Shown: positions 23,465 to 43,200 of the stretch, piece after piece
Layout of the letters: every line of letters begins with the position of its first letter
How positions within the stretch are numbered: the stretch's first letter is position 1
NCBI GenBank assembly: GCA_022763385.1
Contig: JALEGQ010000174.1
Coordinates: forward strand, 1-63,609
Length of the DNA stretch: 63,609 nucleotides
Direction: 5' to 3'
Source: a bacterium
Lineage (GTDB): Bacteria > Bdellovibrionota_C > UBA2361 > RFPC01
Made by a program: the position numbers and the translations under genes
The notes under the pieces: model-generated
What the model saw: the letters and a program-made list of their open reading frames with translations, nothing else
Database searches by the model: none
What the model was told of the DNA's origin: nothing

Positions 23465-23514
23465 ATTCACCCTCGGGTCAAATTCACGCTCGGGTCAAAT
23501 TCATCCTCGGGTCA
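23464..23514. repeat. 17-nt tandem repeat x3 (ATTCACCCTCGGGTCAA-like)
   Basis: 23464-23480, 23481-23497 and 23498-23514. Spans the gap between convergent genes and the last codons of the 23501..24037 gene. Confidence 0.85.
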
Positions 23515-26870: not shown

Positions 26871-26886
26871 ACCTCAACGCTGGGGG

Positions 26887-27414
26887 TTACCCTTCCCCTC
26901 TCTGTGCGATGGAAGGGAATACGTGAAGAGGATTGAGGGGAGTTCCATTTTTTCGCACCTCGAAGTGCAGGTGCGGCCCCGTTACTCGTCCGGTACTTCC
27001 GACCTCTCCGATGATCGAGCCGGCACGGAGGATCATTCCCGTTTTGACCCGGATAGAGTGGAGGTGCCCGTAGTGAGTCGTGACACCGTTCTCGTGTTGA
27101 ACAACGACGAGGTTCCCATAGCCGCCGTGGGGATCAGCGTAGATCACCCGTCCCGACTGAACGGAGCGTACCGGGGCTTCGTGAGGGGCGGCGAGATCGA
27201 GTCCGTGGTGGTGACGTCGCTTCCGGATGACAGGATGGTTTCGCATGCCGAAACCACTGGAGACTCTGGTGCCCACGAGGGGATGGACCACCGCTGTTGA
27301 GTCGTTTTCCGGAGGGATGACACCGGCATTGGTCGGCAAGAATTGTGTTTCTGCGCAGGCGATCAGCGGCGCAACGCAGAAAAAGAGGAAGTAGGGGAGG
27401 AGTCTTCCCATCAC
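26887..27414 (-). CDS. Secreted M23 (LytM-type) peptidoglycan endopeptidase
   Basis: 175 aa. Signal peptide, HHHGLDLAAP (HxxxD) and GPHLHFEV (HxH) motifs. Confidence 0.85.
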   Translation of the reverse strand: MMGRLLPYFLFFCVAPLIACAETQFLPTNAGVIPPENDSTAVVHPLVGTRVSSGFGMRNHPVIRKRRHHHGLDLAAPHEAPVRSVQSGRVIYADPHGGYGNLVVVQHENGVTTHYGHLHSIRVKTGMILRAGSIIGEVGSTGRVTGPHLHFEVRKNGTPLNPLHVFPSIAQRGEG

Positions 27415-28640
27415 TACTCTTCAAAAGCCTTTACCCGAACTGTCGAGCTTGGACGGGCATCGTTCGTGGGGCCGAACCGCACCACATCTCCAGAGATCCA
27501 CGCCCGTTCTCCGGTCGGAGCCATTACTCGGTACCACCCGCCATCCCGCTTCTCGACGACGAGACGAGAGTTCTTCGAAACGGTGAGGAGTACGGAATTG
27601 TTTAATCCCGGCCCGGTACGGAGGTTCGCCTTTTTTACGACGACGGTTGCAATTGGCACCTGTTGATTCGCTGTCTCTCGCTCCGGACTACGGCGTGGCT
27701 GATAGGAAGATGGTTGTGTTGGCGACAGTGCCTGTTGGTTGGTACCTCGGGTTGGCAGCTCAACTGCAGCGCGAGAGGTGCGTCGTGGAGAGGTGTTGTG
27801 CCGCGCGGTTGCGTTTCGTGATGCTGAGAGCTTTCTGAGGTTCTCAATATTTCGTTTTTCGATGATATGTGAGAGACGCTCAACCTCTGTTTCTGCGAGG
27901 AGAAGCTCTTCACGGGTGCGTTCAAGCTCTTTCAGCACCTCGGTTACCTTAGACTCTGCCCGCAGCACTCTCTGGTCAAGCGTTGTCTTGGCTCGTCGGA
28001 GTGCGGAGATCGAGTTCTTCTGTTTCTCGATGGTCTCTTGCAGCGAAGAGTTCTTTCCAACACCTTTTGCCGTGACCGATTGATCTTTCTGAAGTCCGGC
28101 TCTCTGTTGCGATCGGCCGTACGGCGATACCTGTTGGCGAGCGGCTTCAGGTCGTGAAGGAATTCGTGGGGCTACTGCGAGGCGAGCATTTCCAGCTTGC
28201 TCTTCCGAGATGCCGAGCGGAGCGTCGTCTGCGCGCGGTGCTTCTCCCGCCTGTTGTGGCGAATTCGCCCCTTCTGGGCCCTGAAGCACCCGAAGGATGG
28301 CGGCCTCTTCTTCGGCAAGTTTTGTCTCCACCAGTCGGTAAGAATCCTGTCCCTGAATGTGCATGGCCGGCACCTGTTGCGCCACCTGGTGTTGAACGTT
28401 CAGGTGTTCGGTGTTCATCCCGGCAGTTTGGAGACGACCGACCTCTCTTTGGGAAAGAGGAGAAGCATGATCACTCTCTGCCAAAAGGGGGCTCGGATCC
28501 TGAAAAGCGAGGAGCGAAGCGATAACGGAGAAGACAACGGTAGCTGCTAGCTGACCACCTCCACTCCCATGCTCCCTATTCCCATGTTCCCTATTCTTGG
28601 ACTCATCCTGAGTACGCTTCTCATCCTGAGTACGCTTCAT
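27414..28640 (-). CDS. Membrane-anchored coiled-coil protein with a C-terminal bacterial SH3 domain
   Basis: 408 aa. SH3b-like VVKKANLRTGPGLNNSVLLTVSKNSRLVVEKRDGGWYRVMAPTGERAWISGDVV. N-terminus built from duplicated 18-mers and 15-mers. 1-nt junction with the M23 gene. Confidence 0.6.
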   Translation of the reverse strand: MKRTQDEKRTQDESKNREHGNREHGSGGGQLAATVVFSVIASLLAFQDPSPLLAESDHASPLSQREVGRLQTAGMNTEHLNVQHQVAQQVPAMHIQGQDSYRLVETKLAEEEAAILRVLQGPEGANSPQQAGEAPRADDAPLGISEEQAGNARLAVAPRIPSRPEAARQQVSPYGRSQQRAGLQKDQSVTAKGVGKNSSLQETIEKQKNSISALRRAKTTLDQRVLRAESKVTEVLKELERTREELLLAETEVERLSHIIEKRNIENLRKLSASRNATARHNTSPRRTSRAAVELPTRGTNQQALSPTQPSSYQPRRSPERETANQQVPIATVVVKKANLRTGPGLNNSVLLTVSKNSRLVVEKRDGGWYRVMAPTGERAWISGDVVRFGPTNDARPSSTVRVKAFEE

Positions 28641-28715
28641 ACCTTCTCCCTGTAGCCGTCACAAAAACAGCCACTAACAAAAACCAACTATATAACCACT
28701 CACCTCGCGTTCCTC

Positions 28716-28747
28716 CCCAATTCAGCGAAAGGGCCAATTCAGCGAAA
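28716..28747. repeat. 17-nt tandem direct repeat x2 (CCAATTCAGCGAAAG core)
   Basis: Core at 28716-28730 and 28733-28747, in the 118-nt gap between the bPH gene and the SH3b gene. Confidence 0.8.
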
Positions 28748-28758
28748 GTGAACTCCCG

Positions 28759-29376
28759 TTAAAGAGACGCCGCTTCTCGCTTCGGGTCCGCTTCAGAGGG
28801 AGATGAGCTCTGGTCCTCAGGTGGATATTCTCCCCCTGTACCTCTGTTGTGCTGATTTTTTTGAGAATGTTGCGGTATTTGTCGTTTATCTCGCTCTCTT
28901 TCGAGCATTTGTTGCACTTCCTCCGGAACTGCTATCCCATTCAGGACAATTTCGACAGTTCCGGTGGCTGCGGTAGAGATTTCGAGGTTTCCGACCCCGA
29001 GCATCCGTTGGAGGAGTGATTGGTGCGTTTGAAGGCTCCGAATGTCCTCAAACCATACCCGTATGAGCCGTCGTTGAAAGGCGAGAATGCCGATTTCTCG
29101 CTCGACCCCCCGCTCCGTAATGGTATACCGGACATTGTAGATCCGGTACATGGCGCAACCTATCGTAATCACTGGGAGAAACCAGAAAAGGGGGAGTCTC
29201 ATCCGGAATACCGTGTCACCAATGCGGAAGAGCTCTCCGTGGATAATAGACCACGGGAAGAGCTGAGTGAGAACGATGGAGATAATCGCCATAAAGAAAA
29301 AGACGATGAGGGAGACGATCTCCGACCTCCAGGTCCGAGTAATCTCGATCCTGGACTGAGTATCCGCCATATTCAC
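28759..29376 (-). CDS. Bacterial PH-domain (bPH_2 / YdbS-YdbT-like) membrane protein
   Basis: 205 aa. Two TM helices, then TITERGVEREIGILAFQRRLIRVWFEDIRSLQTHQSLLQRMLGVGNLEIS, typical of PF03703-type proteins. Confidence 0.6.
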   Translation of the reverse strand: MNMADTQSRIEITRTWRSEIVSLIVFFFMAIISIVLTQLFPWSIIHGELFRIGDTVFRMRLPLFWFLPVITIGCAMYRIYNVRYTITERGVEREIGILAFQRRLIRVWFEDIRSLQTHQSLLQRMLGVGNLEISTAATGTVEIVLNGIAVPEEVQQMLERERDKRQIPQHSQKNQHNRGTGGEYPPEDQSSSPSEADPKREAASL

Positions 29377-29756
29377 CTCATTCCCAATGTCTTCTCAATA
29401 TCATCGAGGGCTGAAGGACTCCGTTTTGCTCGCGAGGGGGGGGATTGGGGTTCCTGGCGAAGTTCTCTGCGGAGGAGAGAGCCGACATCACTGCCGTTTC
29501 CAGCTCCATTTCTCCTCGGTGAAGCTATCCCTCCCTGAGGGAGCGGTCGATTCCGCTGCTGAAGCTGTTGCTCTCCAACGGCCCTTCGCTCGGATTGCTG
29601 GGCCCGCCGTTTCTCAAAGTACTCCGGTTGAGTTACAGAGATATCCCCGCCGGTTGCCCGCCACAGTCCAAATATGGCGGCGAATACGACGATCGTAAAG
29701 AGGTGAGTCTTGTTCTTGAAAGGTGCCACGAAATTTTGGCTACTAATAAGCGCCAT
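29373..29756 (-). CDS. Single-pass membrane hypothetical protein
   Basis: 127 aa. TM LFTIVVFAAIFGLW. 4-nt overlap with the downstream bPH gene. Confidence 0.45.
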   Translation of the reverse strand: MALISSQNFVAPFKNKTHLFTIVVFAAIFGLWRATGGDISVTQPEYFEKRRAQQSERRAVGEQQLQQRNRPLPQGGIASPRRNGAGNGSDVGSLLRRELRQEPQSPPSRAKRSPSALDDIEKTLGMR

Positions 29757-29869
29757 AGATCTTCTCCATAGGACTGAGGGGAATCCAGAGCGTTGCTCTC
29801 TGAGGATAGTCTATTTTCTCCAGAGGGAACAGCTATTCCTCACGAGGCCCCTTCTTCCACCTGCTCCCG

Positions 29870-30181
29870 CTACTTCGGGGAATAATACTTCCATCTCCCC
29901 TGACGTATCTCAACGATGGACTGATGGGCGGGTCGGTAATACACCCCATCAGGATCAAGCCCCGGAGGGATCTCTACGACATCCACCATCGGCTCTTCCC
30001 ACACATACTCAACGACACCAGGAGCGGTTCGGACGGGAGCCTCTATCACGACCTCTTCCCGTATAATCTGCGGAGCTACTGGCTCTGGAGTGCCTCCCCC
30101 AAAGACGCCGCATCCGCTGAGCAAGAGCGCAAGGCTCCCCACACAGAGTGTCTTTTCGACTGTAAACATACCATTCTCCAT
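29870..30181 (-). CDS. Small lipoprotein with a TraV-like C-terminal PAH-x9-RW motif
   Basis: Start set at the internal ATG at 30181, 2 nt after the traC stop. Lipobox LLLSGC. C-terminus DPDGVYYRPAHQSIVEIRQGRW. Confidence 0.55.
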   Translation of the reverse strand: MENGMFTVEKTLCVGSLALLLSGCGVFGGGTPEPVAPQIIREEVVIEAPVRTAPGVVEYVWEEPMVDVVEIPPGLDPDGVYYRPAHQSIVEIRQGRWKYYSPK

Positions 30182-30183
30182 GA

Positions 30184-32919
30184 TTACGATGGACTTCCTC
30201 CAAAGATGTGATCTGCTGCCGGTCCAGAACCACCGTTTGGTGACGACGGTTCTTCCTGACCGGGTTTCCGTAAAAGCTGTTCCTGGAGTGCTTTGGCGCC
30301 GTGAGGGGCGATAGCAACTACCTGCCGAATCGCTTCGTTGAAATCTCCGTTGCACTGTTGAAGCACCTCCTGAAAGAGTTGGTTGTCGTCTCCATTGTTC
30401 GTACTCGCCCAGTAGAATGAGGGCTCGAGCGGGAGGACGAGAGCCCCTTCTCCGATATCAGAGAGGAGGAAGAACTGAGACTCCACTCCTTTGACCGTTC
30501 GGAGCCGAAGGATAACGTCAGATTGTTCTTCTGAGAGGTTAAAGGCCTGCGCGGTGAGGTGAAACTTCGCGGGGTCCTGTCGGAGGAAGATCTTGTGTGC
30601 ACTGTTCTGGACGATCGCCTGACCGCCATTGCCGACGTAGAAGTCTTCCCCTGATTGGGAAGCCGCAATGACGATTCCCTTTCTCTTTCGGTAGAGTCGG
30701 AAGGCCGTCTCAATGGTATTCGCCGAAGTCTTTCCGATGAGATCGTGTGCCTCATCAAATACGAGGATCTTTCGTGCGTCCAGTTCCTTCGGATCGTTCA
30801 TCACTTCATCTGCCCACATCATGGCGATCTTCAGGAATACCCGTTGGAGATCGGGGTTGCGACTGAGCGCCTTGAGGTCGAAAACGATGAAGCGCTCTTT
30901 GAGCTCGAGACTTCCTGGTCGGTCAAAGAAGCGAGCATATGTTCCATTTCCATAGTACTCGGCGATAAGGGTGGATACCCGTTGTCGCCGCATAGCGGCA
31001 TCTTCTGGCTCATTGATTCGCTGAGGGGCCCGGAGGACGGACACGACATCACTGAGAATTAACTGCCGTTTCATCGGTCCATTCCGATAGAGGCGGTGGG
31101 CCTCGATGAGGGAGTCCGTCACTACGGATTTATCGAGTCTATCGAGGAGGCGAGGGCCATCAGTCGCCATGTCACAGATAACATCGGCGCTCATATCAAT
31201 GAGATCCTTGTAGTCACCCTGCTGAAGGTTTGCTTCTGTTCGTCCCAGTCGGGCGAGGAAGTTCATCGAAGGAGCTTTTGACGGAGTTGCTTCGTATATT
31301 CTTCCGCCGAAGAGTCGCGCTACCTTTTCAAAGCCGCACGGCTGTCCCGCCATCCCCTTGTCAAAAACAAAGGTAATCGGACTTCGCTCTACGAGCCGAC
31401 CGTTGCTGAGGGTTGAGTAGTGCCCGCGGTTCATGGTGATCAACATAAAGCAGAGCAGGTAACTTTTCCCGGCTCCGGACACCCCAGAGATCAGGACGTT
31501 TGGAGCGGTCTCTGAGTCGTAGAGGTCAAAGCCGACGAGCTCACGGTTCCAGAGGCTCGGAAGCACAAAGAGACTTCCCCGACTGCCGCGCCAGTTTCCC
31601 CAGAGAGGAAAGAGGCGAACGGCACGAGAAGAGCGCATCGTATTCGTCCACCCTGGGCCATCCGTTGCGGGGTCGTAGCATCCCGGAAGGCTATTGACGA
31701 TGACGCCGAGATCGGAGACTTCATGTATCATTCCCCGTGCACCGTTTAGCTGCGGAAAGGTTGCGATTGCTTCAGAAGCAGCACGCATCGCTTCTCCCTG
31801 GGTTTGGCAGAAGAATGTCTGATGCACTCCGACCCGCACCATCTGAGATCGATTTCCGTAGAGTTCGGAACGAGCCGCTCGAACGGCAGCGATCTGGTGT
31901 TGAACCTTCTGGTTTGAGCGACCTCTGCTCGTGACCTCTCGAGTCCCGAGAGTTCCATCGAGGGCATCGAGAGAGGCTATCTGCTTCTCTTGAGCGTCTT
32001 TCGAGTAGGTGACGCTGATGATGTTCTCATAGGGAGAGCTTTGCAGCGGGGTGATCATGAGCGGAAGGCACTGCTTCGGAGATTTCACGATTGAGACAGC
32101 ACGAAAGAATCGACCGTCTTTCTTGATCAATCCGTTCTCCGGGTGTTCCGCGGGGGTCTCAGATACCTGGTTCGAAAGAAAGTCGCTGGGATCGTACTCG
32201 GGGCGTGGTACCGCGGTGTTACGTCCCCGACGAAACTTTCCCGATTTAATGCTTCGCCGGTTCAGGATCGGATAGAGCAGGTCAATGAGATCTTGTCCGT
32301 GCAGTGGTCGTGGTCGGAAGCCGAGGTCGGTGAGTTTACTGATCGTTCCATCCACCCGTCCCCGAAACTCTCGGGCGTACTGTTGGTACTCCTTCATCCG
32401 TTCTGCGGTGGAAACACCAACTTTTCCGGTGAACATTGTTTTGAGCGAGCGTATCGTCTGTTCAAGCAGGCCACTGGCACGCCACGCCGGATCACAACGG
32501 AAGCTGACGAGTAGACGAAGCTTTCGAGGGCGTTGATAGTACTGCCCCTGCTGCGCACTTCTCCGAAGCATCCGGCTCCACCGCTTCGCCATCCATCCAC
32601 TGACTCCACCCGAGGGGTACTCGTGGATACTCCGTTGTAGCAGGGACTCAACATCAAAGGTGGTAATCCAGTTCCACTGGACGCTGATTTCGGGCGGAAG
32701 CGCATCGAGCATCTCTTGGACCTGTGCTGAGAGCTGAAACGCCTCTCGGTCAGAGGTGTTGGTGATCCACTGCGGACTCAGCTCCCACATCGACCAGAGC
32801 GAGGCATCAGAGTGGACAAAGAGGCCGAATTCCTTCTCGAACTTCACGTAGGGAAGAAGCTCATTAAAGGTTCGTTCATCCTGGTAGAGCCTTTCCCGGG
32901 TAATGCGGTTAATGCTCAT
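30184..32919 (-). CDS. traC: TraC/VirB4-family type IV secretion ATPase
   Basis: 911 aa. Walker A SGVSGAGKSY and Walker B KILVFDEAHD. Size and N-terminal LLPYVKFEKEFGLF pattern match F/GI-type TraC. Confidence 0.85.
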   Translation of the reverse strand: MSINRITRERLYQDERTFNELLPYVKFEKEFGLFVHSDASLWSMWELSPQWITNTSDREAFQLSAQVQEMLDALPPEISVQWNWITTFDVESLLQRSIHEYPSGGVSGWMAKRWSRMLRRSAQQGQYYQRPRKLRLLVSFRCDPAWRASGLLEQTIRSLKTMFTGKVGVSTAERMKEYQQYAREFRGRVDGTISKLTDLGFRPRPLHGQDLIDLLYPILNRRSIKSGKFRRGRNTAVPRPEYDPSDFLSNQVSETPAEHPENGLIKKDGRFFRAVSIVKSPKQCLPLMITPLQSSPYENIISVTYSKDAQEKQIASLDALDGTLGTREVTSRGRSNQKVQHQIAAVRAARSELYGNRSQMVRVGVHQTFFCQTQGEAMRAASEAIATFPQLNGARGMIHEVSDLGVIVNSLPGCYDPATDGPGWTNTMRSSRAVRLFPLWGNWRGSRGSLFVLPSLWNRELVGFDLYDSETAPNVLISGVSGAGKSYLLCFMLITMNRGHYSTLSNGRLVERSPITFVFDKGMAGQPCGFEKVARLFGGRIYEATPSKAPSMNFLARLGRTEANLQQGDYKDLIDMSADVICDMATDGPRLLDRLDKSVVTDSLIEAHRLYRNGPMKRQLILSDVVSVLRAPQRINEPEDAAMRRQRVSTLIAEYYGNGTYARFFDRPGSLELKERFIVFDLKALSRNPDLQRVFLKIAMMWADEVMNDPKELDARKILVFDEAHDLIGKTSANTIETAFRLYRKRKGIVIAASQSGEDFYVGNGGQAIVQNSAHKIFLRQDPAKFHLTAQAFNLSEEQSDVILRLRTVKGVESQFFLLSDIGEGALVLPLEPSFYWASTNNGDDNQLFQEVLQQCNGDFNEAIRQVVAIAPHGAKALQEQLLRKPGQEEPSSPNGGSGPAADHIFGGSPS

Positions 32920-33446
32920 TCTGTCTCCTCCTCGGCAGAAGCCGTGTCTTCGGAAGAACTCTCGTTAAAAAAGGCAGCCTCCTTCGGTTGACCAGCGAGG
33001 AAGCGAACCTCTCGGTTCTCATGATCTATAGTCACCTTGACACCAGCAGTTGCTTCAATCTCTCTGGCGAGTTCCTCGAAGGTGCCGAGCGTATTTATGG
33101 TAATGGTCTCCTCTCTGAGAAGACTTGAGCAGTAAGTGCTATACCGATTCAGGCCAGCGAGCACCGTTGCTGCGGTGCAGAGTGGTTGATCCTCGAGAGA
33201 GAAATGAACCACTGGGAGTAGTTTTGGGCGACTTGGGTCTGCTAAGCCTGCACTCCGAAGGTCTCGACTTGGATGCGTTTCTGGGAGGTGAACCCACCGC
33301 AATCGACTGTAGGTCAGATCTGGAGGAAGTTGACGGTCCGCAACTCGATACACCTTCTTTTCAACCTCTACGGGGTGAGTGCTGCTACACCCTCCCAGAA
33401 GAATGAGGAGAAAAGAGAGGTGTAGAGGAGCAGAGAACCGCTTCAT
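32916..33446 (-). CDS. Lipoprotein, possibly PilL/TcpQ-like
   Basis: 176 aa. Lipobox ILLGGC. C-terminal TITINTLGTFEELAREIEATAGVKVTIDHENREVRFL resembles TcpQ/secretin-N-type modules. ATGA overlap with traC. Confidence 0.4.
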   Translation of the reverse strand: MKRFSAPLHLSFLLILLGGCSSTHPVEVEKKVYRVADRQLPPDLTYSRLRWVHLPETHPSRDLRSAGLADPSRPKLLPVVHFSLEDQPLCTAATVLAGLNRYSTYCSSLLREETITINTLGTFEELAREIEATAGVKVTIDHENREVRFLAGQPKEAAFFNESSSEDTASAEEETE

Positions 33447-33448
33447 AA

Positions 33449-33949
33449 CTACCGTCCCTGAGTAAAGGGAACAGAGGTTGTCGATTCACTCTGACCGTTA
33501 ATAAGTGCTTCCTGATCGAAGACATCCGTTGCCGCCCACCGGTCATCGAGCACTTTCAGATAGTAGTAGTGCGCTGGTACGAGATCGCCATTCTTGTTTA
33601 GGTGATCTGGCACCCACATAAGTCGAACAACCGATGGTTGAATCACGGGATTTTGAGGTTGTGGCTGGTGAGCCTTGGGGTAGCGAGCGACCTCTTCAAG
33701 CGACTCTCGAGCATCTTCAATACTCGTTCCTCCATCTCGTAAGGCGCTATCGTCAAGCTTCCCGAGGTATGCACGAGGAGGAGGCTCTTCTTGAAATGGG
33801 TTCAGTGAATTTCCGAATCGGCTGCATCCGCTCAGGATCAGAGCAGCGCTCAACAGTGCTGCCGCTCCGAGAGGAGAGACCAGCGCCCGAGGCCGACCTC
33901 GTTGTCGAAGTGACCCTTCTTCCCCACTGCTATATGTTATCTTGCTCAT
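33449..33949 (-). CDS. traV: TraV-like outer-membrane lipoprotein (VirB7 analogue)
   Basis: 166 aa. Lipobox LILSGC. VVRLMWVPDHLNKNGDLVPAHYYYLKVLDDRW resembles the conserved TraV / TIGR03751 tail. Position between traB and traC. Confidence 0.5.
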   Translation of the reverse strand: MSKITYSSGEEGSLRQRGRPRALVSPLGAAALLSAALILSGCSRFGNSLNPFQEEPPPRAYLGKLDDSALRDGGTSIEDARESLEEVARYPKAHQPQPQNPVIQPSVVRLMWVPDHLNKNGDLVPAHYYYLKVLDDRWAATDVFDQEALINGQSESTTSVPFTQGR

Positions 33950-33966
33950 AATTCCTCCAAAAACCG

Positions 33967-35160
33967 TTAATCGAGACCGCTGAACACATCTTCTTCATCA
34001 GTATTGAGCATCTCGAAGAGGCGAGGGATCTCTGCGCCACGACTGAAAATTGCGGTTGCCTCGCGTCCGGAATACACCTGAATTGCTGGTACCGTCTGTT
34101 GCACGCGTTGTCGAATTACGTCACTCCACATCCGCGCGGACTCTGAGATTCCTCGTCCCGCTGCAAACTGAAGAGCATCACCGGTAAGAGCGGAGCTGAT
34201 CGCACCATTATTCCCGACAGTAGTCGTTACCTGACCGGTGGAGAGCGCATTCCCAGCTCCCTGAACGAAGCCGTTAATCGCTCCAGCTCCGAGGATCTTT
34301 CCAAGGGGATCGATGGGAATCCCCTTCATCCCTCGAATACCGTCTTCTCCAACGATCCATCCATCGACCGAGACATCGAGGAGCTCTCCGTTCGGGAGTC
34401 GCATGGTAAGCGTGGTGAGACGAAATAGGGCTCGGGAGTCAACCAGTGATCCTTGAGCGGCTGCAAGCATCCGTGCACCTCCGAGCGGAAGATTTCCTCC
34501 GTCTGGACTCTGGACATCACCGACAAGCTCAAGCAGAACGGGGTAGGGGGTTCCATCTGTGGGGGCGTTCACCCCAGCGAGTAGCTTTACCCGAACGAAA
34601 TCTGTCGGAGCGATGTAGGCGATCCGAGCGTCTTCTTCGGCGAGCTCTGGGGGAGCAACGACCCCAACGTCAGCAACCTCTCCGAAGCTCTCAAGAGTGT
34701 CGCCCGAGAAAGGATCTTCGTCCGGGAACGCAGGGGAATCTGATACGGGATTACCCGTGACCCCATCAGCTGCATAGTCAGGCAGCGCTGGTCGTTGAGA
34801 TTCGATCCGCTTGATGAGTGTCTCGAAGATCTCGGCAGTTCGCATCTCGTTCTCCTCGATCCGCTCCTCCGTGTTCTTCTGGTTCTCCTGTAACTGCCCC
34901 ATGATCTCTTTCTGTTGATCGAGGCGGCTGACGATAACCTCCTGGAGATCACTATAAACCTCCTGGGCAGAAGCTGCTCCGATCTTATCCGCCGGCTGCT
35001 CTCGCACCGTGAAAGCGGGTTGAGCGGTTCTTCTTCGCTGTTTTGGTTGGTAGAAAACCAGAAAGAGTACCGCGAGAACGACGCAGCCCGCGATCACCTG
35101 AGCCTTTCGGTCTCGTTGAACGAGCTGGTACATGTCACTTGCTTTTTGCTGAATACTCAT
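33967..35160 (-). CDS. traB: TraB-like (VirB10/TrbI-family) T4SS core protein
   Basis: 397 aa. N-terminal TM, coiled coil, and a Gly-rich C-terminal beta domain (VDGWIVGEDGIRGMKGIPIDPLGKILGAG...QVYSGREATAIF). Confidence 0.65.
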   Translation of the reverse strand: MSIQQKASDMYQLVQRDRKAQVIAGCVVLAVLFLVFYQPKQRRRTAQPAFTVREQPADKIGAASAQEVYSDLQEVIVSRLDQQKEIMGQLQENQKNTEERIEENEMRTAEIFETLIKRIESQRPALPDYAADGVTGNPVSDSPAFPDEDPFSGDTLESFGEVADVGVVAPPELAEEDARIAYIAPTDFVRVKLLAGVNAPTDGTPYPVLLELVGDVQSPDGGNLPLGGARMLAAAQGSLVDSRALFRLTTLTMRLPNGELLDVSVDGWIVGEDGIRGMKGIPIDPLGKILGAGAINGFVQGAGNALSTGQVTTTVGNNGAISSALTGDALQFAAGRGISESARMWSDVIRQRVQQTVPAIQVYSGREATAIFSRGAEIPRLFEMLNTDEEDVFSGLD

Positions 35161-35176
35161 CGTTCCGACACTCCCC

Positions 35177-35998
35177 CTAGTCCTTCTTTGCCCTTGTCAC
35201 GACGTATACCTTCGTTTTGTGTTTTCCGGCGATCTGCTGCTCAATGTTGAGCGGCTTCGCTGTGAGCTCCCAGTTGCTCATGGAGATCGCTCGTGTTCCA
35301 TTTAAGCGGAAGGTCGCTGGATTCAATCGTTGAGAAACATCGAGCTCATTGGAAGCATCGATCACATATCCCCACAACTTCGGACCGATAAAGATCTTGT
35401 CGATCGTGGCGTTGAGCGTTCCATCGTTCAGCACTTTCTCGCCCCGGTATCGGTCTGTTACCCGATATCCTGGGATCTTATCTTTGCCAAACTCCGCTGC
35501 GAGCACGAGTTCTCTCATAAAACCAGCAACCGTTCCGGGGTGCTGTTTTTGAAACTTCCTCTGCTCATACGGGTTCAATTCTTCTTCCTCCTGATCAAAG
35601 ACACTGGTGCTTCTTTTGTCTCGGATTTGGAGTTGTGGATCTCGCGGAAACTCTTCTGTGGCTCGTTGAACCCGTACCGGATACGAACGGCCATCCTCCA
35701 GCCGGACGATGAGCGCCTCGCCTTCCTCCGTCAGTGACTCATTAGAGAAGAGGATGAGGTCAGAGTCCTTGCGATCAAGTGAAAGAGAGGTCTGACGCCC
35801 GCGGAAACCACCGGCAATCTTTGACGGAAATCGAACCTGGGTTGGTTCTCCTGGTTGTACTCGAACCGGAATCTCTCCCTCTCCACGATACTCGAGTTCT
35901 CGCGCGAAGAGCGGAGATACTCCGAGCACGAGGAGCAGTGCGAGCGCTATGAAGCCCTTCGCAAGGGGGGAAGAGCTCTGTTTGTTAGTAATCAACAT
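35177..35998 (-). CDS. traK: TraK-like (VirB9 analogue) periplasmic T4SS core protein
   Basis: 273 aa. Signal peptide. C-terminal ...GPKLWGYVIDASNELDVSQRLNPATF...TRAISMSNWELTAKPL...KVYVVTRA fits the TraK pattern. Confidence 0.6.
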   Translation of the reverse strand: MLITNKQSSSPLAKGFIALALLLVLGVSPLFARELEYRGEGEIPVRVQPGEPTQVRFPSKIAGGFRGRQTSLSLDRKDSDLILFSNESLTEEGEALIVRLEDGRSYPVRVQRATEEFPRDPQLQIRDKRSTSVFDQEEEELNPYEQRKFQKQHPGTVAGFMRELVLAAEFGKDKIPGYRVTDRYRGEKVLNDGTLNATIDKIFIGPKLWGYVIDASNELDVSQRLNPATFRLNGTRAISMSNWELTAKPLNIEQQIAGKHKTKVYVVTRAKKD

Positions 35999-36632
35999 TT
36001 TCTACCTCGATTTTCTTCGCCATAAGTCCGTACATATTGAGCTTGTTTCTGGGACGGGTCACAAAGGTGATGGTGTACCGGGTATGAACCGTTGGAACCT
36101 GTTTCCCCGCAATAAATTTTGTTCGGTCTCCGAAGAGGCTCACGGCAATCCCCTCAGACTTCGGCTCAATTTTTGTCTTAGTCGGATCTACGAAAAAGAG
36201 CTGAGTTCTCGCCGTGCTCCGGATAGCGCTCAGCTCAAGGCCGAGCATGGTCTCTCGAAAGGTCGAGAGCGCCGGTTCTTCGAGGTGTTCAAGTGCGGCA
36301 ACAAACTGCCGTTCCGCAACGTGTGGTTGGTACGTGGCGATAAGATTTACAATCTCTGTTGCGGCTTCAAGAAGAGCGGCCTCAGGGATCTCGTTAATCG
36401 CATACTGTCCCGGGAGTGGCTGACGAGGAACATGGAGAGTTACCTCTCGAGTTGAGTAGAGGTAGAAAACGAAGATGATCAGGAGGATACTTCCGATCAT
36501 CTGGGCAAGAGCGATTACTCTCCAGAGCATCGCCTGCTCGCGATAGCTCTCCCAAAGTCGAAAGGTATCATTTTCTCCTTTCGAATCGACCTCTCCAATG
36601 TGTTTTATGAAGTGGGCAACTTTTCCCATCAT
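35985..36632 (-). CDS. traE: TraE-like (VirB8 analogue) bitopic inner-membrane protein
   Basis: 215 aa. One N-terminal TM (VIALAQMIGSILLIIFVFYLY) plus a periplasmic domain. 14-nt overlap with traK. Position in the L-E-K-B order. Confidence 0.5.
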   Translation of the reverse strand: MMGKVAHFIKHIGEVDSKGENDTFRLWESYREQAMLWRVIALAQMIGSILLIIFVFYLYSTREVTLHVPRQPLPGQYAINEIPEAALLEAATEIVNLIATYQPHVAERQFVAALEHLEEPALSTFRETMLGLELSAIRSTARTQLFFVDPTKTKIEPKSEGIAVSLFGDRTKFIAGKQVPTVHTRYTITFVTRPRNKLNMYGLMAKKIEVENVDY

Positions 36633-36651
36633 ATGCTCCTAAAACTTGGGC

Positions 36652-37056
36652 CTAAAACTGAGGCTCACTTTCATCACCCTCTTCCTCATCGAACAATTCT
36701 GAGAGATGAAGCTGATGATATTCCTTCTTCTCTTCGAGCTTCTTTACGGGGACTCCACTCCAGACCGGCTGGATGGCGGCGGGAGCAGGGATCCCAGGAG
36801 GACTGATTCCGAGAATGACCATGAAAAAATTTGCGACACCTCTTTCTTCGTCGGGAAAAGCCTTTCGGAGACGAACAAGGCCAAAGGTGGTTCCGATGAG
36901 GATCCCGAGGAAGATCGGCATGGTTCGGGCTGGGCTCGAAAGAAACATCTCTTGAATGAGTATCGCCACGAGAAATCCTGAGCCCCACTCCGTGACACGT
37001 GCGCCAGCAAAGGTCCAGCCTTCGTCTAGCCCGGGAATGACTTCGCCGTTATCCAT
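36652..37056 (-). CDS. traL: TraL-like (VirB3 analogue) small membrane protein (tentative)
   Basis: Internal start MDNGEV (37056), 1 nt after the upstream stop. 134 aa with two hydrophobic helices and LVRLRKAFPDEERG. First position of the L-E-K-B-V-C order. Confidence 0.45.
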   Translation of the reverse strand: MDNGEVIPGLDEGWTFAGARVTEWGSGFLVAILIQEMFLSSPARTMPIFLGILIGTTFGLVRLRKAFPDEERGVANFFMVILGISPPGIPAPAAIQPVWSGVPVKKLEEKKEYHQLHLSELFDEEEGDESEPQF

Positions 37057-37057
37057 C

Positions 37058-37627
37058 TTAAAACCTCTCTCTTCCTGTCGGAGCTTCTCCCTCTCTTGCT
37101 TCTGATTCCTGTCCTGCAGGGGCAGAGTACTCTTCGATCTCACCGTTCTGAGCAGACGAGGCTGCGAGAGGTTCTGAGCTCTCCGTACGAGATTCTGCTT
37201 CGTCCTGATACCGTTCTGCTGGGGAGGCTGCTGGAGGCGCTGATGGAGGTACCGTGCCGCCCGTTTCTCCGAGGAGTTCGGGGGCTGCTCCGTAGCGGAC
37301 ACCTCCCTCGGTGGCCCTTGGCTGAGGATCAATCACCCGTCCGAGGACCTGAATGTGATCAAGAATTCGAGAGCGAAGCTCTCCGGCATCGATCAGCGCG
37401 TCTGGATCCACCACCTCTGTTCCTCGATCGAACTCGCGAAGGGCCTTCACCATATAGGTGCGGGCTCGTGCCCAATGACCGGTGGCTTTACTGAGCTCCC
37501 TCCCGTCTGCGCGCTCAATAAGAACCGGTCCCGCCTGAGCAGCGACGGTGGATGAGAAGAGGACTCCAAGGATGAGACTGGAGACGAGGAAAGGGAAAGA
37601 AAAGCAGCCTGGGCGACGAGTCACCAT
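37058..37627 (-). CDS. Secreted protein, first gene of the T4SS-like operon (possible distant RAQPRD-family relative)
   Basis: Start set at MVTRRPGCFSFPFLVSSLILGVLFSSTVAAQA (37627, AAGGA upstream). Contains LGRVIDPQPRATEGG and an acidic Ser/Glu/Ala-rich tail. Confidence 0.45.
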   Translation of the reverse strand: MVTRRPGCFSFPFLVSSLILGVLFSSTVAAQAGPVLIERADGRELSKATGHWARARTYMVKALREFDRGTEVVDPDALIDAGELRSRILDHIQVLGRVIDPQPRATEGGVRYGAAPELLGETGGTVPPSAPPAASPAERYQDEAESRTESSEPLAASSAQNGEIEEYSAPAGQESEAREGEAPTGRERF

Positions 37628-37894: not shown

Positions 37895-39028
37895 TCAGTC
37901 TATTACGATTCTTGAGAGCGGCTCTGCGAAGGTGGGGGGATACTTCGATGCCCGTCGGAGCCCGGCAGGGCCCTTCATCTTCCAGACCACATCTCCCCCC
38001 GGAGTCACCTCAAGGATTCGGTTTCGGAAGTCTTCGGAGAGGAGGGTGTTGCCGTTCGGCAGCCGTTGGAGCGAGCCGTGACCGTTGCTAAAGAAACGGG
38101 TGCCGTTTTCGTACTTCCAGACGATTTCGCCGGTGGTCGGTTCAATCTCCAGGGCGATGGAGCCCCTTTCCCTCGTTCCATTATCGAAGATCAGGATATT
38201 TCCTGCCCCTGGGAGGCCTTTTCGGATCATGTGAGCCTCATGCGGAAATTGGAGCCCACCGAGCGGATTCTCGGAGTAGCTCCAGACGACCTGCTTTTTC
38301 TTGCGGTCTACGATGTAGCCTGACCAGAGGTTTCGAGCCATCGTGATCACGTTTCCCGGTGCAAAGCGGGGGTCTCCTTCATCGTGCCACCGGTTTGGAG
38401 GGAGGAATCGGACCGTGTTTGCGTGGCTCCAGTCCCGCACCCGTTTTCTCCAGATCGGTGCATCTGCTCCCTTGGCACACGGCCGTGTCCCACAGCTATG
38501 AATGTCGAGTGAGCGATCGAAGTGCCACTCCCACCGGGTCTTCCCGGCGCTATCGACCTCTCGGGCGATATCAGAGCGGACTCGCCGCTTGGCTTTTGAA
38601 TATTCCGCTTCTGGGGAGGGGAGGTGGCGAAATCTCTTTTCCACGAGAAAGAGTGTGCGGCCATCGGCGGTCCGCTCGAAGTCGTGGTGGATCTCTCCTT
38701 CTTCGGCCCGTACTTCCCACACCTGATTCCCCGACCAATCATACTCGTGCAACGCTTCGTCGACGATGGCGAGGAGGTTTCCGTTCGGGAGGAGTTTTGC
38801 TCGCACCGTTTTTATCGCCCACTGATGGTGGAGCCTCCCACGGTGATCAAAGAGGTACACCTGGTGGTCACCGAGCGAGGGGTAGAGGAGGAAGCCGGGC
38901 GCTGATGCCGGTGAATGGTCCCCCTGAGAGGGGAAGGTTTTTACCCGGGTTGTCGGGAGTGCCTCAGCACCTCGCTCGGTGATGCCGAATGAGATGAGGC
39001 AGAGGAGAGAGTAAAAAAGGATCTTCAT
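37895..39028 (-). CDS. Arylsulfotransferase (ASST)-family beta-propeller protein, paralog 1
   Basis: Start set at MKILFYSLLCLISFG (39028, ATGA overlap). LLPNGNLL, HHD, WSHANTV, PGAGNILIFDNG and RLPNGNTLLSED motifs are shared with the two paralogs. Confidence 0.65.
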   Translation of the reverse strand: MKILFYSLLCLISFGITERGAEALPTTRVKTFPSQGDHSPASAPGFLLYPSLGDHQVYLFDHRGRLHHQWAIKTVRAKLLPNGNLLAIVDEALHEYDWSGNQVWEVRAEEGEIHHDFERTADGRTLFLVEKRFRHLPSPEAEYSKAKRRVRSDIAREVDSAGKTRWEWHFDRSLDIHSCGTRPCAKGADAPIWRKRVRDWSHANTVRFLPPNRWHDEGDPRFAPGNVITMARNLWSGYIVDRKKKQVVWSYSENPLGGLQFPHEAHMIRKGLPGAGNILIFDNGTRERGSIALEIEPTTGEIVWKYENGTRFFSNGHGSLQRLPNGNTLLSEDFRNRILEVTPGGDVVWKMKGPAGLRRASKYPPTFAEPLSRIVID

Positions 39029-40251
39029 GATGAGGCTCCTGCCGCAGAATGTAAGGGGAGCTGAGAGAGTTCTCGGCAGTGATCGCTCGGATAGCGGTGC
39101 GCTCGCGCTGTTCGCATCTCTGCTTGATAGCTCCACACGACTTCTCCTTCCGGAGTAACTTCGAAGACCGTTCCTGGTACGTCCTCAGAGATCAGGGTGT
39201 TACCGTTCTTCAGTCGTTGGGCAACACCGGCAGCTCGGCTGAAGAAGTTTTCTCCGTCTTCATAGCTCCACACGATCTCTTTCGTTACGGGATGAATTTC
39301 TCGTACCTGAGAGCGTTTTTCGGCCCGACCATTATTAAAGAGTAAGATATGCCCCGCCCCTGGAAGGCCCGGTTCGATCATGATCCCTTCGTGCACCCCT
39401 GAGAGTCCGGTATCGTAGCTCCAGAGCACTGCCCCACTCTTTCGGGAGATGATCACGATAGTCGACCAGTTTCTGAGCGTTAAGAGGATATTTCCGGGAC
39501 GGAAGGGGTTTTCCCCTCCCTCCGCAGAAATTTGGTGTGCAAATTCGTTTTCCGGAAGAACAGAGATCCCATTCGCATGAGTCCAATCAAAAACTCGCGA
39601 GCCATCGGAGATGCTTTCGGGGAGCGGCGAGCACGGGTCAGCACCACACGAGTTGAGGTCGAGGTGATCGTGTGCGGCCCACTCCCAAACGACTTCTCCA
39701 CTGCGAGTAACTTCCTGGATGATATCAGTTCGAATCTTCGCGTTTCGCTTGGCGGGATCTTCGATTGATTGTTTCGCCCGCTTCGGAACGGTAGATCGAA
39801 AGAGGACGAGCGTGTTTCCGTTCGGAAGTCGTTGCACGTCGTGGTGGGCCGGGCCAGGAAGCTCATGTTCCCAGACGACCTCTCCATCCCAGCTATACTC
39901 GCGCACGAGGGGGCGAAGAGCATCCCACTCTTTCTGACTCCACCCCCACTTCGTCCCGTGGACGATGAGGAGGTTGCTGTTCGGTAAAAGTCGAACGCGG
40001 GCAGCATCAATATCCCACATTCGAACGGTTTCACCGGACATGTTTACCGCACGAATCTTGGCTGAACCCGATTCGCCAAAGATCGTAAATCCCTTCTCCG
40101 CGCGGGGATCGAGCGGTGCATTTTTCTGCAAGGGTGGCAAAGCACGTTCCCGAGGGAGATCTTTCTCTCGGGAGAAAGTCGAGAGGGCAACAGTGAGTCC
40201 GAAGGCCGCGAGGGCTCCGAGAAGAAGGAGCTGTGTCTGTTTTCTCGTCAT
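39025..40251 (-). CDS. Arylsulfotransferase (ASST)-family beta-propeller protein, paralog 2
   Basis: 408 aa. N-terminal anchor. LLPNSNLL, HHDVQRLPNGNTL, WTHANG, PGAGHILLFNNG and RLKNGNTLISED. ATGA overlap with the GT-C gene. Confidence 0.65.
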   Translation of the reverse strand: MTRKQTQLLLLGALAAFGLTVALSTFSREKDLPRERALPPLQKNAPLDPRAEKGFTIFGESGSAKIRAVNMSGETVRMWDIDAARVRLLPNSNLLIVHGTKWGWSQKEWDALRPLVREYSWDGEVVWEHELPGPAHHDVQRLPNGNTLVLFRSTVPKRAKQSIEDPAKRNAKIRTDIIQEVTRSGEVVWEWAAHDHLDLNSCGADPCSPLPESISDGSRVFDWTHANGISVLPENEFAHQISAEGGENPFRPGNILLTLRNWSTIVIISRKSGAVLWSYDTGLSGVHEGIMIEPGLPGAGHILLFNNGRAEKRSQVREIHPVTKEIVWSYEDGENFFSRAAGVAQRLKNGNTLISEDVPGTVFEVTPEGEVVWSYQAEMRTARAHRYPSDHCRELSQLPLHSAAGASS

Positions 40252-41798
40252 GGAATATTCGTTTCTCCTTCGTTTTGTCTTCTCGTCAACACCATCATCC
40301 CATCAGGAGCCGGCAGTGTCCTATACCCCGAAAGATTGTGAAAGAGGGAGGGAAAGTACCGTTTGAGCTTCTCTGTCTCAATGATCACCCCGTCAATGTC
40401 ACGGCGGTCAGGGAGTGCTCGCATCATTTCTCGGTTCATCAGGTGGTATCTGGAGATCTCTTGCTCCGAGACCTTTCCCTCCATCCGCACCCAAAACTGA
40501 TTCTCGAGTCCGAGCACCGGGGAGAGATGGGTGGCAAAGAGGAAGCCGGGCCACTGGCTCGCTACTGTTTGCCCCTCACGAAACTCGTGGTTGAGCAGAG
40601 CTGATATCTCTTCGAGAGTCTGGAGGGTGAAGATCTCCTTGCTCTCCTGAGTGAGCCCCTTCAGTCCACGTCCCGATTCGGTGATTCGCTTTACGGTTTC
40701 CGGCGTACTCCAGAGAGAGAGCATCGAGAGACCGACGAGGATGGTGATCGTCATTCGGCGAGCAGAAAATGAGGTGCTCCCAATGCCGAGAATAAAGAGC
40801 GGTATACAGGTGCTGAAGTACTGCACGTGAATTGGAGACGGTACGAAGTAGAGTCCGAAGAGCACAAGGCCCGCTGCGGTCGGAAAGGGGGGGAGCTGTT
40901 TTTTCCACAGTGCGACCCCAGCGATGACGAGATTTATCCAGAGGAGCGCTGCAGAGGCGAGTCCATCCACACGAAAGGAGGAGTGCATGCCGGTAACGAT
41001 CCGGAAAATCCTCCACTTTGAGGCCGCGTCGATACTCTCTGGTCGGTGGTTCCTCACGAGGTGATAGCCGAGATTGTTAAACCAGTACGCCGCCGGATCA
41101 CTGAGAAAAATGAGGTGGGGGAGGCCGCTCACCGCTCCGCCGATGAGAAAAGCGAAGACGAAACGAGGCTGAACATTGCGGCTCGTTCCGATGTACCAGA
41201 GAAAGATCGGGAGAAGCCCGGCGTAGAAGAGACGGATCCCGATCGCGATCCCGAGGAGCAGTCCCGCCCCAGCGAGAAGAGCCGTCTTTCCCGCGATGAA
41301 TTCGTCCTCCCGTTCTCTGAGCGCTAACAGGAGACATACGATACTCCCCATCAGTGGGAGGGAAGCGAAGGGATAGGTCTTGGCCACGGTAAACCAGGTG
41401 AGCACGAGGGAGTTCGTGAGAAAGAGCAAGAGAGCAAGGAGCCCACACACGAGTGATCGCTTTTGTGCGGCTACTGAGGTCACGCAGAGCGCGATCGTGC
41501 CGCATGCGAAGCACACGGTAATAAGGCGTGCCGTGAGCCAGTCAGCACCGAGCAGTGAAATCCACGCACCGTGAATCAGGGGGAGCAGCGGCATCTGTGG
41601 ATAAAAGAAGGAGAAGTAGGGGAGGCGTCCTTCCGATACGAGCCTCCCAGCGAGCAGATAAAACCCTTCATCCGCGGCAACAAAACGGGAGAGGCTCACC
41701 GGGATGAGCGCCGCGCATGAGAGGAGAAACGCTCCAGTAGCGATCAGGAGAAGAGACCTCGCCGAAAAGGTCTCGGTGTCAGATGACGGTAGCGACAT
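40248..41798 (-). CDS. GT-C fold glycosyltransferase (ArnT/PMT-like, GT39/GT83-type) with a C-terminal soluble domain
   Basis: Start set at MSLPSSD (41798). About 12 hydrophobic helices and a first-loop DEGFY motif (VAADEGFYLLAGRLVSEGRLPY). Confidence 0.6.
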   Translation of the reverse strand: MSLPSSDTETFSARSLLLIATGAFLLSCAALIPVSLSRFVAADEGFYLLAGRLVSEGRLPYFSFFYPQMPLLPLIHGAWISLLGADWLTARLITVCFACGTIALCVTSVAAQKRSLVCGLLALLLFLTNSLVLTWFTVAKTYPFASLPLMGSIVCLLLALREREDEFIAGKTALLAGAGLLLGIAIGIRLFYAGLLPIFLWYIGTSRNVQPRFVFAFLIGGAVSGLPHLIFLSDPAAYWFNNLGYHLVRNHRPESIDAASKWRIFRIVTGMHSSFRVDGLASAALLWINLVIAGVALWKKQLPPFPTAAGLVLFGLYFVPSPIHVQYFSTCIPLFILGIGSTSFSARRMTITILVGLSMLSLWSTPETVKRITESGRGLKGLTQESKEIFTLQTLEEISALLNHEFREGQTVASQWPGFLFATHLSPVLGLENQFWVRMEGKVSEQEISRYHLMNREMMRALPDRRDIDGVIIETEKLKRYFPSLFHNLSGYRTLPAPDGMMVLTRRQNEGETNIP

Positions 41799-41901
41799 AC
41801 GGCAGGAGAATAAGGGAAAGCAGCTCTCATGAACAGGGAGCCTCTTTCCTTCTCGGAAGAGACCAGTATCATGTTGGCTCACACGGTGTGTCGTAAGGCC
41901 T

Positions 41902-43200
41902 ATGAAGTCAGATAGAAAAAACTTTTTGGAGATCTTGCTCCTCCTCGGAGCAGTTGCCGTCCTCACCTTCCTCGTGCAGCAGCAAGAGGGGCGTTCTGTG
42001 GGGGAACGGGAGCCGTTGGCCTCTGTCTCCGAGAGCCGAGCAAAACAAGCCCCCCCAGCTTCCCCAGAAGGAGGGCTCGAGCAAGAAAAAAAGAAGACGA
42101 AAGGAGTGGCAGAACGGATTCCCGCCGATGCTCCCTTCGAGGGGTACACCCTCTATGCCACCAGCGGAACGGCAGAGGTGTTGTTGACGAATACGTCGGG
42201 AGATTTTGTGAAGCGGTGGGAGATCGATGCCGACCGGGCGCGCCTTCTCCCGAATGGAGATCTCCTCGTGGTACACGGTTCGAAGTGGGGACTTCAGCGA
42301 GAGCCGTGGGCCTCCCTCCGTTCGGTGATTCGGAAGTATCGGTGGGACGGCAGTATTGTTTGGGAGCATGAGCTCCCCGGCGAAGCGCACCACGATATCG
42401 TTCCGCTTGCGAATGGAAATATCCTTGCGGTGTACCTCACCCGGGTGCCGAAGGCCCTTATCCGGGAGAAGCTCGGGAAACAGTTCGAGCGGGTGCATAT
42501 CCGTTCTGATGTGCTCGTCGAGATCTCTCCTGCCGGAGAAGAGGTGTGGCGGTGGGCCTCTCATGAACATCTCTCGCTGCGCGATTGTGGAGCGAGGTCG
42601 TGTCCGGATCTCTCGAAAGAGGAGTTTCTGAGTGGGAAGCGGCGGTTCGACTGGACCCACATCAATACGGTGCGAGAGCTGCCGCAGAATCAGTGGGTAG
42701 AGAGCGGAGATGCCCGCTTTGCGCCGGGCAATATCTTAATCTTCCCGAGGAACTTTTGGAGCGCTCTCCTGATCGATAAGCCTACTGGTGAGGTCGTATG
42801 GCGTTACCATGGGGAGGGAGAGCGAGGAATCTCTGGGGGGCACGAATCTTACATGATTCCGCCCGGCTATCCTGGGGCGGGCAATATCCTGATCTTTGAT
42901 AACGGTCGCATCCACGAACAATCCCGAGTACTCGAGGTGCATCCCCTCACGAAGCAGGTGGTGTGGAGTTATGCAGACGGCCCCCGATTCTTCTCTCGTG
43001 TCGCTGGAGCCGCCCAACGCCTCCCGAACGGCAACACCTTGATTTCGGAGGATACGAGCGGGCGGATCTTCGAAGTCAACAGCGCCGGAAAAGAGGTGTG
43101 GAGTCACCACGCCTACAAGATTCGCATCAATCGTGCCCACCGCTACCCGCCTGATTATGCGCCGCAGTTTGCGGCTCTATCAGCTAACGAAGACGGGTAA
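41902..43200 (+). CDS. Arylsulfotransferase (ASST)-family beta-propeller protein, paralog 3 (divergently transcribed)
   Basis: 432 aa. N-terminal anchor. LLPNGDLL, HHDIVPLANGNIL, WTHINT, PGAGNILIFDNG and RLPNGNTLISED. Confidence 0.65.
   Translation: MKSDRKNFLEILLLLGAVAVLTFLVQQQEGRSVGEREPLASVSESRAKQAPPASPEGGLEQEKKKTKGVAERIPADAPFEGYTLYATSGTAEVLLTNTSGDFVKRWEIDADRARLLPNGDLLVVHGSKWGLQREPWASLRSVIRKYRWDGSIVWEHELPGEAHHDIVPLANGNILAVYLTRVPKALIREKLGKQFERVHIRSDVLVEISPAGEEVWRWASHEHLSLRDCGARSCPDLSKEEFLSGKRRFDWTHINTVRELPQNQWVESGDARFAPGNILIFPRNFWSALLIDKPTGEVVWRYHGEGERGISGGHESYMIPPGYPGAGNILIFDNGRIHEQSRVLEVHPLTKQVVWSYADGPRFFSRVAGAAQRLPNGNTLISEDTSGRIFEVNSAGKEVWSHHAYKIRINRAHRYPPDYAPQFAALSANEDG

Follow-up and report, generated by a model that had tools for sequence, protein, structure and literature searches.

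A probable non-conjugative, distantly F-like type IV secretion core operon in the chromosome of an uncultured Bdellovibrionota lineage

Secretion systems of type IV (T4SSs) are mostly known from mobile elements and pathogens. The window analysed here, positions 1 to 63,609 (63.6 kb) of contig JALEGQ010000174.1 from a metagenome-assembled genome (MAG) of the Bdellovibrionota_C lineage (assembly GCA_022763385.1), carries a compact cluster of genes related to such systems. Thirteen co-directional open reading frames (ORFs) occupy the minus strand between positions 26887 and 37627, with an intergenic spacing of -14 to +118 nt. They encode, in order, a secreted protein (hereafter sec), a TraL candidate, TraE, TraK, TraB, TraV, a second lipoprotein (lipo2), the TraC/VirB4 ATPase, a third lipoprotein (lipo3), a bitopic protein (oneTM), a bPH_2 membrane protein, an SH3b coiled-coil protein and an M23 metallopeptidase (Table 1). 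The initial annotation of this DNA had described thirteen tightly packed minus-strand genes with intact ORFs and an L-E-K-B-V-C gene order. Coordinates and spacing re-derived here agree with that description, the order holds, and all 13 ORFs are intact both in the window and in L166, the nearest long relative contig (22.7 kb covered, TraC 80% identical to that of the window). Only start sites required correction: lipo3 begins at 30181, and the bPH and M23 genes start with GTG, the M23 start overlapping the SH3b stop by 1 nt. From the comparison with relatives presented below, we consider it on balance probable that this cluster is the core operon of a non-conjugative and distantly F-like T4SS that is chromosomal and vertically inherited, and whose pilin and coupling protein are likely to be encoded elsewhere in the genome.

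Table 1. Genes and features of the operon and its borders, in window coordinates. TM, transmembrane; HMM, hidden Markov model; T4CP, type IV coupling protein; U680, membrane protein paired with the T4CP in relatives.
Feature	Position	Strand	Characteristics and matches
sec, first gene of the operon	37058..37627	-	signal peptide and a helical, non-hydrophobic, conserved mature domain of ~90 aa
TraL/VirB3-sized inner-membrane protein, 134 aa (candidate)	36652..37056	-	two hydrophobic helices; assigned by position only
TraE, bitopic, VirB8 class	35985..36632	-	PF05309 4e-6 (above gathering score); TIGR02761 1e-5
TraK, VirB9-class periplasmic/outer-membrane core protein	35177..35998	-	signal peptide; TIGR02756 2e-3 (marginal)
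TraB, VirB10 class	33967..35160	-	N-terminal TM helix and C-terminal TrbI; PF03743 6e-15; PRK13729 9e-22
TraV lipoprotein, VirB7 class	33449..33949	-	lipobox LSGC; PF09676 0.013 (marginal)
lipo2, second lipoprotein	32916..33446	-	lipobox LGGC; conserved alpha/beta C-terminal domain
TraC/VirB4 ATPase	30184..32919	-	TIGR02746 5e-59; TIGR00929 8e-31; PF11130 3e-16; PF19044
lipo3, small lipoprotein	29870..30181	-	lipobox LSGC; conserved motif WEEPMVD...GLDPEG.YYRP.H..VVEIR.GRW
oneTM, bitopic	29373..29756	-	single N-terminal TM helix, low-complexity tail
bPH_2 membrane protein	28759..29376	-	two TM helices and a bacterial PH domain; PF03703 6e-12
SH3b coiled-coil protein, membrane-anchored	27414..28640	-	C-terminal SH3b; PF08239 (SH3_3) 3e-9
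M23 (LytM-type) metallopeptidase, secreted	26887..27414	-	PF01551 7e-35; signal peptide
M23-stop junction	26871..26886		16 bp to the stop of the convergent 789-aa gene; place of the pilin gene in L003 and L004
replacement block	37895..43140		two arylsulfotransferase-like genes (signal peptides), a polytopic 633-aa membrane protein and small ORFs
u172, ~165-170 aa	43384..43902	+	clade HMM scores 291 bits in the window

The secretion genes were examined in the window and in 81 operon loci, fetched from MAGs labelled Bdellovibrionota and compared by tblastn and by blastp clustering. Hidden Markov model (HMM) searches uphold the initial assignments of TraE, TraK, TraB, TraV and TraC, whereas that of TraL receives no HMM or PDB support. 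Over 20 TraC orthologues the mean column identity is 78%, and Walker A (GVSGAGKS) and Walker B (VFDEAH) are invariant. TraE was found in 68 loci. Family matches extend to the orthologues of the two core proteins that score marginally in the window: TraK_C matches 12 of 19 TraK orthologues (best 1.9e-6) and PF09676 matches all 18 TraV orthologues scanned (best 2.4e-5). An HMM built from the TraK proteins of the clade also picks up TraK in two outgroup loci, L082 and L084. None of the 19 orthologues of the TraL candidate has a Pfam, NCBIfam or PDB match; the gene stands where a small gene precedes TraE in L084, an outgroup locus of conjugative type. Profile-versus-PDB searches with TraK, TraV and TraL produced no useful match.

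The remaining members of the operon are conserved along with the core. Orthologues of sec are present in 60 loci; neither they nor the window protein belong to a Pfam or NCBIfam family, and sec, with its helical, non-hydrophobic mature domain, is not a pilin. The second lipoprotein is possibly DotD/N0-like, judging from its profile matches: PF16816 (DotD) matches just two of 19 lipo2 orthologues (2e-4), a profile-versus-PDB search came back empty, and a single-sequence AlphaFold2 (AF2) model (pLDDT 49) yielded generic ferredoxin-like Foldseek matches only. Kinship of lipo2 to the N0 domain of TraK was dropped, as hhalign finds no alignment between them. The lipo3 family also comes after TraC in L082 and L084. 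Its motifs resemble those of TraV by eye, but hhalign aligns the signal peptides only and we do not retain lipo3 as a TraV paralogue. Tandem duplicates of lipo3 occur in the more divergent branch of the clade (L063:12732-13402 and L067:12763-13456), where TraC is ~61-63% identical to that of the window. Blastp clustering recovers oneTM orthologues in 64 loci, the position of the bPH_2 gene is conserved among relatives, and the SH3b protein was found in 60 loci. Both active-site motifs of the M23 peptidase, HxxxD and HxH, are intact. A promoter and terminator scan was uninformative, sigma-70-like sites being rarer than in shuffled sequence.

The surroundings of the operon are those of an ordinary chromosomal region. 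The flanking genes are housekeeping and lipid A/LPS genes (arginine and leucine biosynthesis, MsbA, KdtA, LpxK, ABC transporters), GC content is flat (0.53-0.57) over the cluster and its flanks, and the window has no tRNA genes. A Pfam search of 52 window ORFs, all but about 14 of less than 190 aa, retrieved no relaxase, type IV coupling protein (T4CP), VirB6/TraG, integrase or F-specific Tra domain, in agreement with the earlier statement that the window holds no DNA-processing genes.

A search across GTDB, with one genome per species, identified TraC in at least 115 species genomes, almost all of them MAGs labelled Bdellovibrionota, Bdellovibrionales, Oligoflexia or 'Deltaproteobacteria', and homologues within this clade number in the hundreds at 60-82% identity. 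When 1.84 billion cluster representatives are considered, all full-length TraC sequences of the clade fall into one cluster at 50% identity, and the next full-length homologue is only 31% identical. Because of this isolation, TraC sequences indicate a single, slowly evolving and vertically inherited lineage, unlike the traffic of mobile elements. The thirteen-gene order is seen in most of the 81 loci, and in essentially all of those with sufficient flank. The recurrence of this synteny in relatives, which the initial annotation had proposed to look for, thus extends over dozens of species. The comparison of substitution rates that it had also proposed is informative in part. Between the window and L166 the synonymous rate (dS) is saturated and the nonsynonymous rate (dN) ranges from 0.14 (TraC) to 0.56; all ORFs are intact in spite of this divergence, but the ratio omega could be estimated for few genes only (~0.15-0.18), given the saturation of dS.

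Between the two origins that had been envisaged, an eroded integrative and conjugative element (ICE) and a domesticated machine, these data favour the latter. That many conjugation genes are missing from the window is what an ICE remnant would look like, but intact ORFs, a thirteen-gene synteny shared by dozens of species, TraC sequences 60-82% identical over at least 115 species genomes, housekeeping flanks with no compositional island, and saturated dS with no sign of decay make erosion extremely improbable.

Relatives of the window genome also possess components that the window lacks. A gene encoding a VirB2/TrbC-type pilin (~140 aa) lies downstream of the M23 gene in 20 of the 31 loci with enough downstream flank. 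The protein combines a long leader with two hydrophobic helices, and 11 members of the family match PF04956 (best 8.6e-6). One to three copies are adjacent to the operon, and many of the 137 copies counted across species genomes are unlinked to it. Arrays of two or three diverged tandem copies follow the M23 gene in L037 (15877-18486), L038, L040 and L041, and unlinked extra copies are found for instance on contigs 4 and 8 of both JAUIBK01 and JBIIHQ01.

At the other end, just upstream of the first operon gene and divergent from it, relatives carry a pair of genes for a T4CP (~700 aa) and for a protein of ~680 aa with N-terminal TM helices, here called U680. U680 adjoins the operon in 38 of the 52 loci with enough upstream flank, and 78 of 80 T4CP loci have both genes together. 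The ~700-aa protein is identified as a T4CP from its Walker A (AKTGVGKT) and Walker B (VIIDEG) motifs and from its profile matches: PF12696 TraG-D_C (2e-9), SXT_TraD (1e-18), the IncI family TrbC_conju (2e-16) and, as sole match to a solved structure, DotL/IcmO (8e-12, over the Walker A region). It is nearly as widespread as TraC, occurring in 112 species genomes versus 115, and is adjacent to the operon in about three-quarters of the loci. In other genomes the pair lies on a contig other than that of the operon (contigs 1/3 in JBMNIF01, 9/3 in CALMIO01, 12/13 in JBILFA01, 27/29 in JBIJBT01 and 52/29 in JAITKM01) or, in UBA2409, on the same contig ~45 kb away. A MAG with the label Planctomycetota has a contig, L149 (JACTND010000235.1), on which U680 and T4CP are 63% identical to their clade counterparts; mis-binning of the contig or a wrong label on the MAG is a more probable cause than horizontal transfer.

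If any protein of the system plays a part like that of VirB6 or DotM, U680 is the sole candidate. Searches of Pfam, NCBIfam and PDB profiles gave no match to it (a TrwI match stands at E = 2.6), and an all-helical AF2 model built on a six-sequence alignment (pLDDT 64) has no Foldseek match below E 0.5. We tried it as relaxase, DotM and VirB6, and sequence or fold matches support none of these. The pair is often accompanied by u172, whose gene comes directly after that of the T4CP at 50 of 80 loci, among them some in which the pair is unlinked from the operon (L144, L143, L153, L159). U172 matches no Pfam or NCBIfam family, and may be an adaptor of the coupling protein.

Under its option of a domesticated machine, the initial annotation had viewed the system as an ATPase with an outer-membrane core and nothing else. 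This did not hold at the level of the clade, where relatives have pilin, T4CP and U680, and the stripped-down look of the locus is mostly local to this contig. The missing parts that, according to the same annotation, could lie elsewhere were recovered in part: T4CP and pilin exist in relatives, whereas relaxase, TraG and TraF/H/N/U/W are absent from all loci examined. A survey of neighbouring gene families in about 160 loci, for which flanks of 6-10 kb were requested, found no relaxase, VirB6/TraG, VirB11, VirB5, VirB1-type transglycosylase or TraF/H/N/U/W among the conserved neighbours.

In the window genome and in L166, pilin and coupling pair have been removed from the ancestral ends of the operon. 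Where L003 and L004 have the pilin gene, the M23 stop in the window is only 16 bp away from that of the 789-aa gene converging on it. The slot of U680 and T4CP, between the first operon gene and u172, is occupied by the replacement block, and the same derived layout is found in L166, with its arylsulfotransferase genes at L166:950-5282. Related genomes retain either ancestral border: HKST-UBA25 (TraC 82%) keeps the upstream U680 and T4CP pair, and HKST-UBA20 still has a pilin gene next to that of M23. Clade-specific HMMs for T4CP, U680 and the VirB2-type pilin, run on the window translated in six frames, found none of the three, remnants included. The arylsulfotransferase-like beta-propeller genes and the 633-aa gene (37895-42149) are on the operon's strand, directly upstream of it; they could be unrelated insertions or recruits to the operon.

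Such a layout may result either from relocation of the missing genes or from their loss. Most likely, the pilin and the coupling pair are encoded elsewhere in the window genome: u172 has been retained and is well conserved, and unlinked pairs are known in other genomes of the clade, which favours relocation. Several points weigh against the reading of the operon as the core of such a complete system. T4CP, U680 and pilin are absent across the 63.6 kb of the window and the 22.7 kb of L166. No T4CP among the best T4CP matches is traceable to the MAG of the window (TraC MCI5066186.1), to the EBR25 MAG or to JBMTVV01; a T4CP from this sublineage was expected near the top of these matches, but the assemblies are MAGs, one of them very fragmented. 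P0271, P0272 and P0275, considered as candidates, belong to samples other than those of the window's or L166's assembly. According to a review, VirB6 is conserved in all T4SSs (PMC12857230), and we recognised no homologue of it in the window or among conserved neighbours. Lastly, substrate and function we purely infer, and a coupling protein keeps DNA transfer possible.

The first rival explanation is a real reduction, in which the common ancestor of the window genome and L166 lost pilin, T4CP and U680 while selection kept the thirteen-gene machine. Its function might then be the two-step export of Sec-delivered periplasmic proteins, as in Ptl, or a role in the envelope or peptidoglycan. The replacement or deletion at both operon ends is clean and common to the two genomes, both of which have retained the 13 genes intact at saturated dS, T4CP remains untraced in three independent assemblies of the sublineage, several operon products have Sec signals or lipoboxes, and T4CP-less T4SSs do exist (Ptl, Brucella VirB and ComB; PMC12857230). 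The evidence for absence nevertheless comes from MAGs and short contigs; in at least five other genomes where it does not adjoin the operon, the pair is simply found elsewhere, pilin copies are often unlinked, and u172 is retained. Moreover, the known T4CP-less systems named in a review still have VirB2 and VirB6 (PMC12857230). We therefore regard a reduction of this kind as a tentative explanation, and a real loss of pilin and T4CP in the sublineage of the window and L166 as doubtful. If it were true, this would be a T4SS derivative operating without pilin, VirB6, T4CP and VirB11 and long kept by selection, and the arylsulfotransferase-like proteins in the former slot of the coupling pair would be possible partners.

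The second rival is DNA transfer, whether by chromosomal conjugation, by DNA release as for the gonococcal island or by uptake as for ComB, with DNA-processing genes located elsewhere. The T4CP of the clade is related to the TraD and TrbC families, the core is F-like, and the search for relaxases was confined to the window and the locus neighbourhoods. On the other side, no conserved neighbour family in the ~160 loci resembles a relaxase, nor does any window ORF searched; integrases, tRNA genes and signs of an island are lacking; and the strict vertical inheritance of a single, isolated TraC lineage is unlike the behaviour of mobile elements. DNA transfer as the role of this system seems unlikely.

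For the reading that we prefer, a core operon with pilin and coupling protein elsewhere, the roles of the components can be sketched from established T4SS architecture (PMC12857230). TraC, TraL, TraE and the N-terminus of TraB would form the inner-membrane platform, and TraK, TraB and TraV, together with the extra lipoproteins, the outer-membrane core. The SH3b-M23 pair would take over from a VirB1 transglycosylase by opening the sacculus locally, a plausible substitution that fits the conservation of the pair. TraC would drive polymerisation of the pilin, and T4CP with U680, perhaps assisted by u172, would recruit substrates from the cytoplasm. Proteins are more probable substrates than DNA, since no relaxase is linked in any examined locus. 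Taken with vertical inheritance, the lack of a linked relaxase leads us to favour a non-conjugative role, either protein delivery or pilus-mediated cell-cell interaction.

Comparison with described systems places the operon closest to the MPF_F class, represented by F/pED208 and SXT/R391. Both have the TraL-E-K-B-V-C order; the best HMM matches of TraC, TraB, TraE and TraK are to F-type families, the T4CP of the clade is closest to SXT_TraD, and its pilin is of VirB2/TrbC type. The NCBIfam cut-offs for F-type equivalogs are nevertheless far from being reached (200 versus 567 bits for TraC, 78 versus 504 for TraB, 25 versus 109 for TraE, 17.5 versus 124 for TraK). The clade system differs in having no TraF/H/N/U/W/TrbC, TraG/VirB6 or relaxase at the examined loci, in its additional lipoproteins, bPH and SH3b-M23 proteins, in being chromosomal and vertical, and in its pilin gene, which is unlinked or stands at the operon's far end. 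The initial annotation had also pointed to the gene order of systems of the ICE and genomic island (GI) type. The corresponding models do not support this affiliation: TIGR03744 scores 45 versus 521 bits and TIGR03752 32.5 versus 241, and no further TIGR0374x/0375x model reached E 0.1 in the window proteins.

Likenesses to the Dot/Icm-IncI systems (T4BSS) are the matches of the T4CP to DotL/IcmO and TrbC_conju and those of two lipo2 orthologues to DotD. The membrane-protein gene just upstream of the T4CP gene presumably parallels the dotM-dotL order. No other Dot/Icm component was detected, and the core is F-like, not I-like. On these profile comparisons, the system appears not to be a member of MPF_F, MPF_G or T4BSS as these are defined.

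Ptl, Brucella VirB and ComB are T4CP-less, chromosomal and non-conjugative systems with two-step or T4CP-independent transport (PMC12857230), a class to which the window sublineage would functionally belong if its T4CP is truly absent. ComB retains VirB2 and VirB6. All three are of VirB type, whereas the present system is F-like and the clade at large has a T4CP. Ptl retains VirB2, VirB6 and VirB11.

A further parallel concerns inheritance. In Rickettsiales, the genes of the rvh system are scattered over several loci. Accounts given in two sources (PMC2653234; PMC12857230) depict rvh and the T4SS of Patescibacteria as vertically conserved, non-plasmid systems, and the Patescibacteria locus as one with six VirB2-like pilins that is essential for epibiotic growth. 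The clade studied here is similar in having one to three adjacent pilin genes plus unlinked copies and a T4CP that is sometimes unlinked; the differences lie in the phyla, in the VirB-type or monoderm-type architecture of those systems, and in the link to lifestyle, which for this clade is conjectural.

No account of a T4SS in this clade turned up in our literature searches. Here an F-like T4SS has the behaviour of a core, slowly evolving trait of the chromosome in more than 100 species of an uncultured lineage, which occurs widely in lakes and other waters and bears the label Bdellovibrionota, a phylum known for predation. The lack of a linked relaxase and the lineage-specific parts (the two lipoproteins, bPH, SH3b-M23 and U680) suggest that the system serves the lifestyle of these bacteria (for instance cell-cell interaction, predation or epibiosis, or the delivery of proteins) and not gene transfer. 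Within this lineage, the sublineage of the window amounts to a natural experiment: the operon is intact while pilin and T4CP are gone from the locus, which raises the question of what a T4SS core can do alone.

Some additional features were noted around these loci. The 789-aa protein convergent on the operon (24501-26870, plus strand) has no Pfam match; by eye it shows a degenerate kinase-like N-terminal stretch, a hydrophobic segment in the middle and a helical C-terminal half, and it adjoins the locus in 21 relatives at merely 26-33% identity. A 178-aa protein (23501-24037, minus strand) with a phosphoribosyltransferase-like motif by eye and no Pfam match is as conserved as TraC (72-82% identical clade-wide) and might be used as a neutral marker when species of the clade are counted. 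Outside the clade, the nearest TraC (31% identity) lies on a JGI metagenome contig in a very short cluster (L082:3657-9880) flanked by amidohydrolases and a solute-binding protein. The gene order there is TraK-TraB-TraV, a 290-aa gene with no assignment, TraC, and a 213-aa gene with a lipo3-like C-terminus; TraL and TraE are not visible in it. This cluster may represent a second kind of minimal chromosomal Tra module.

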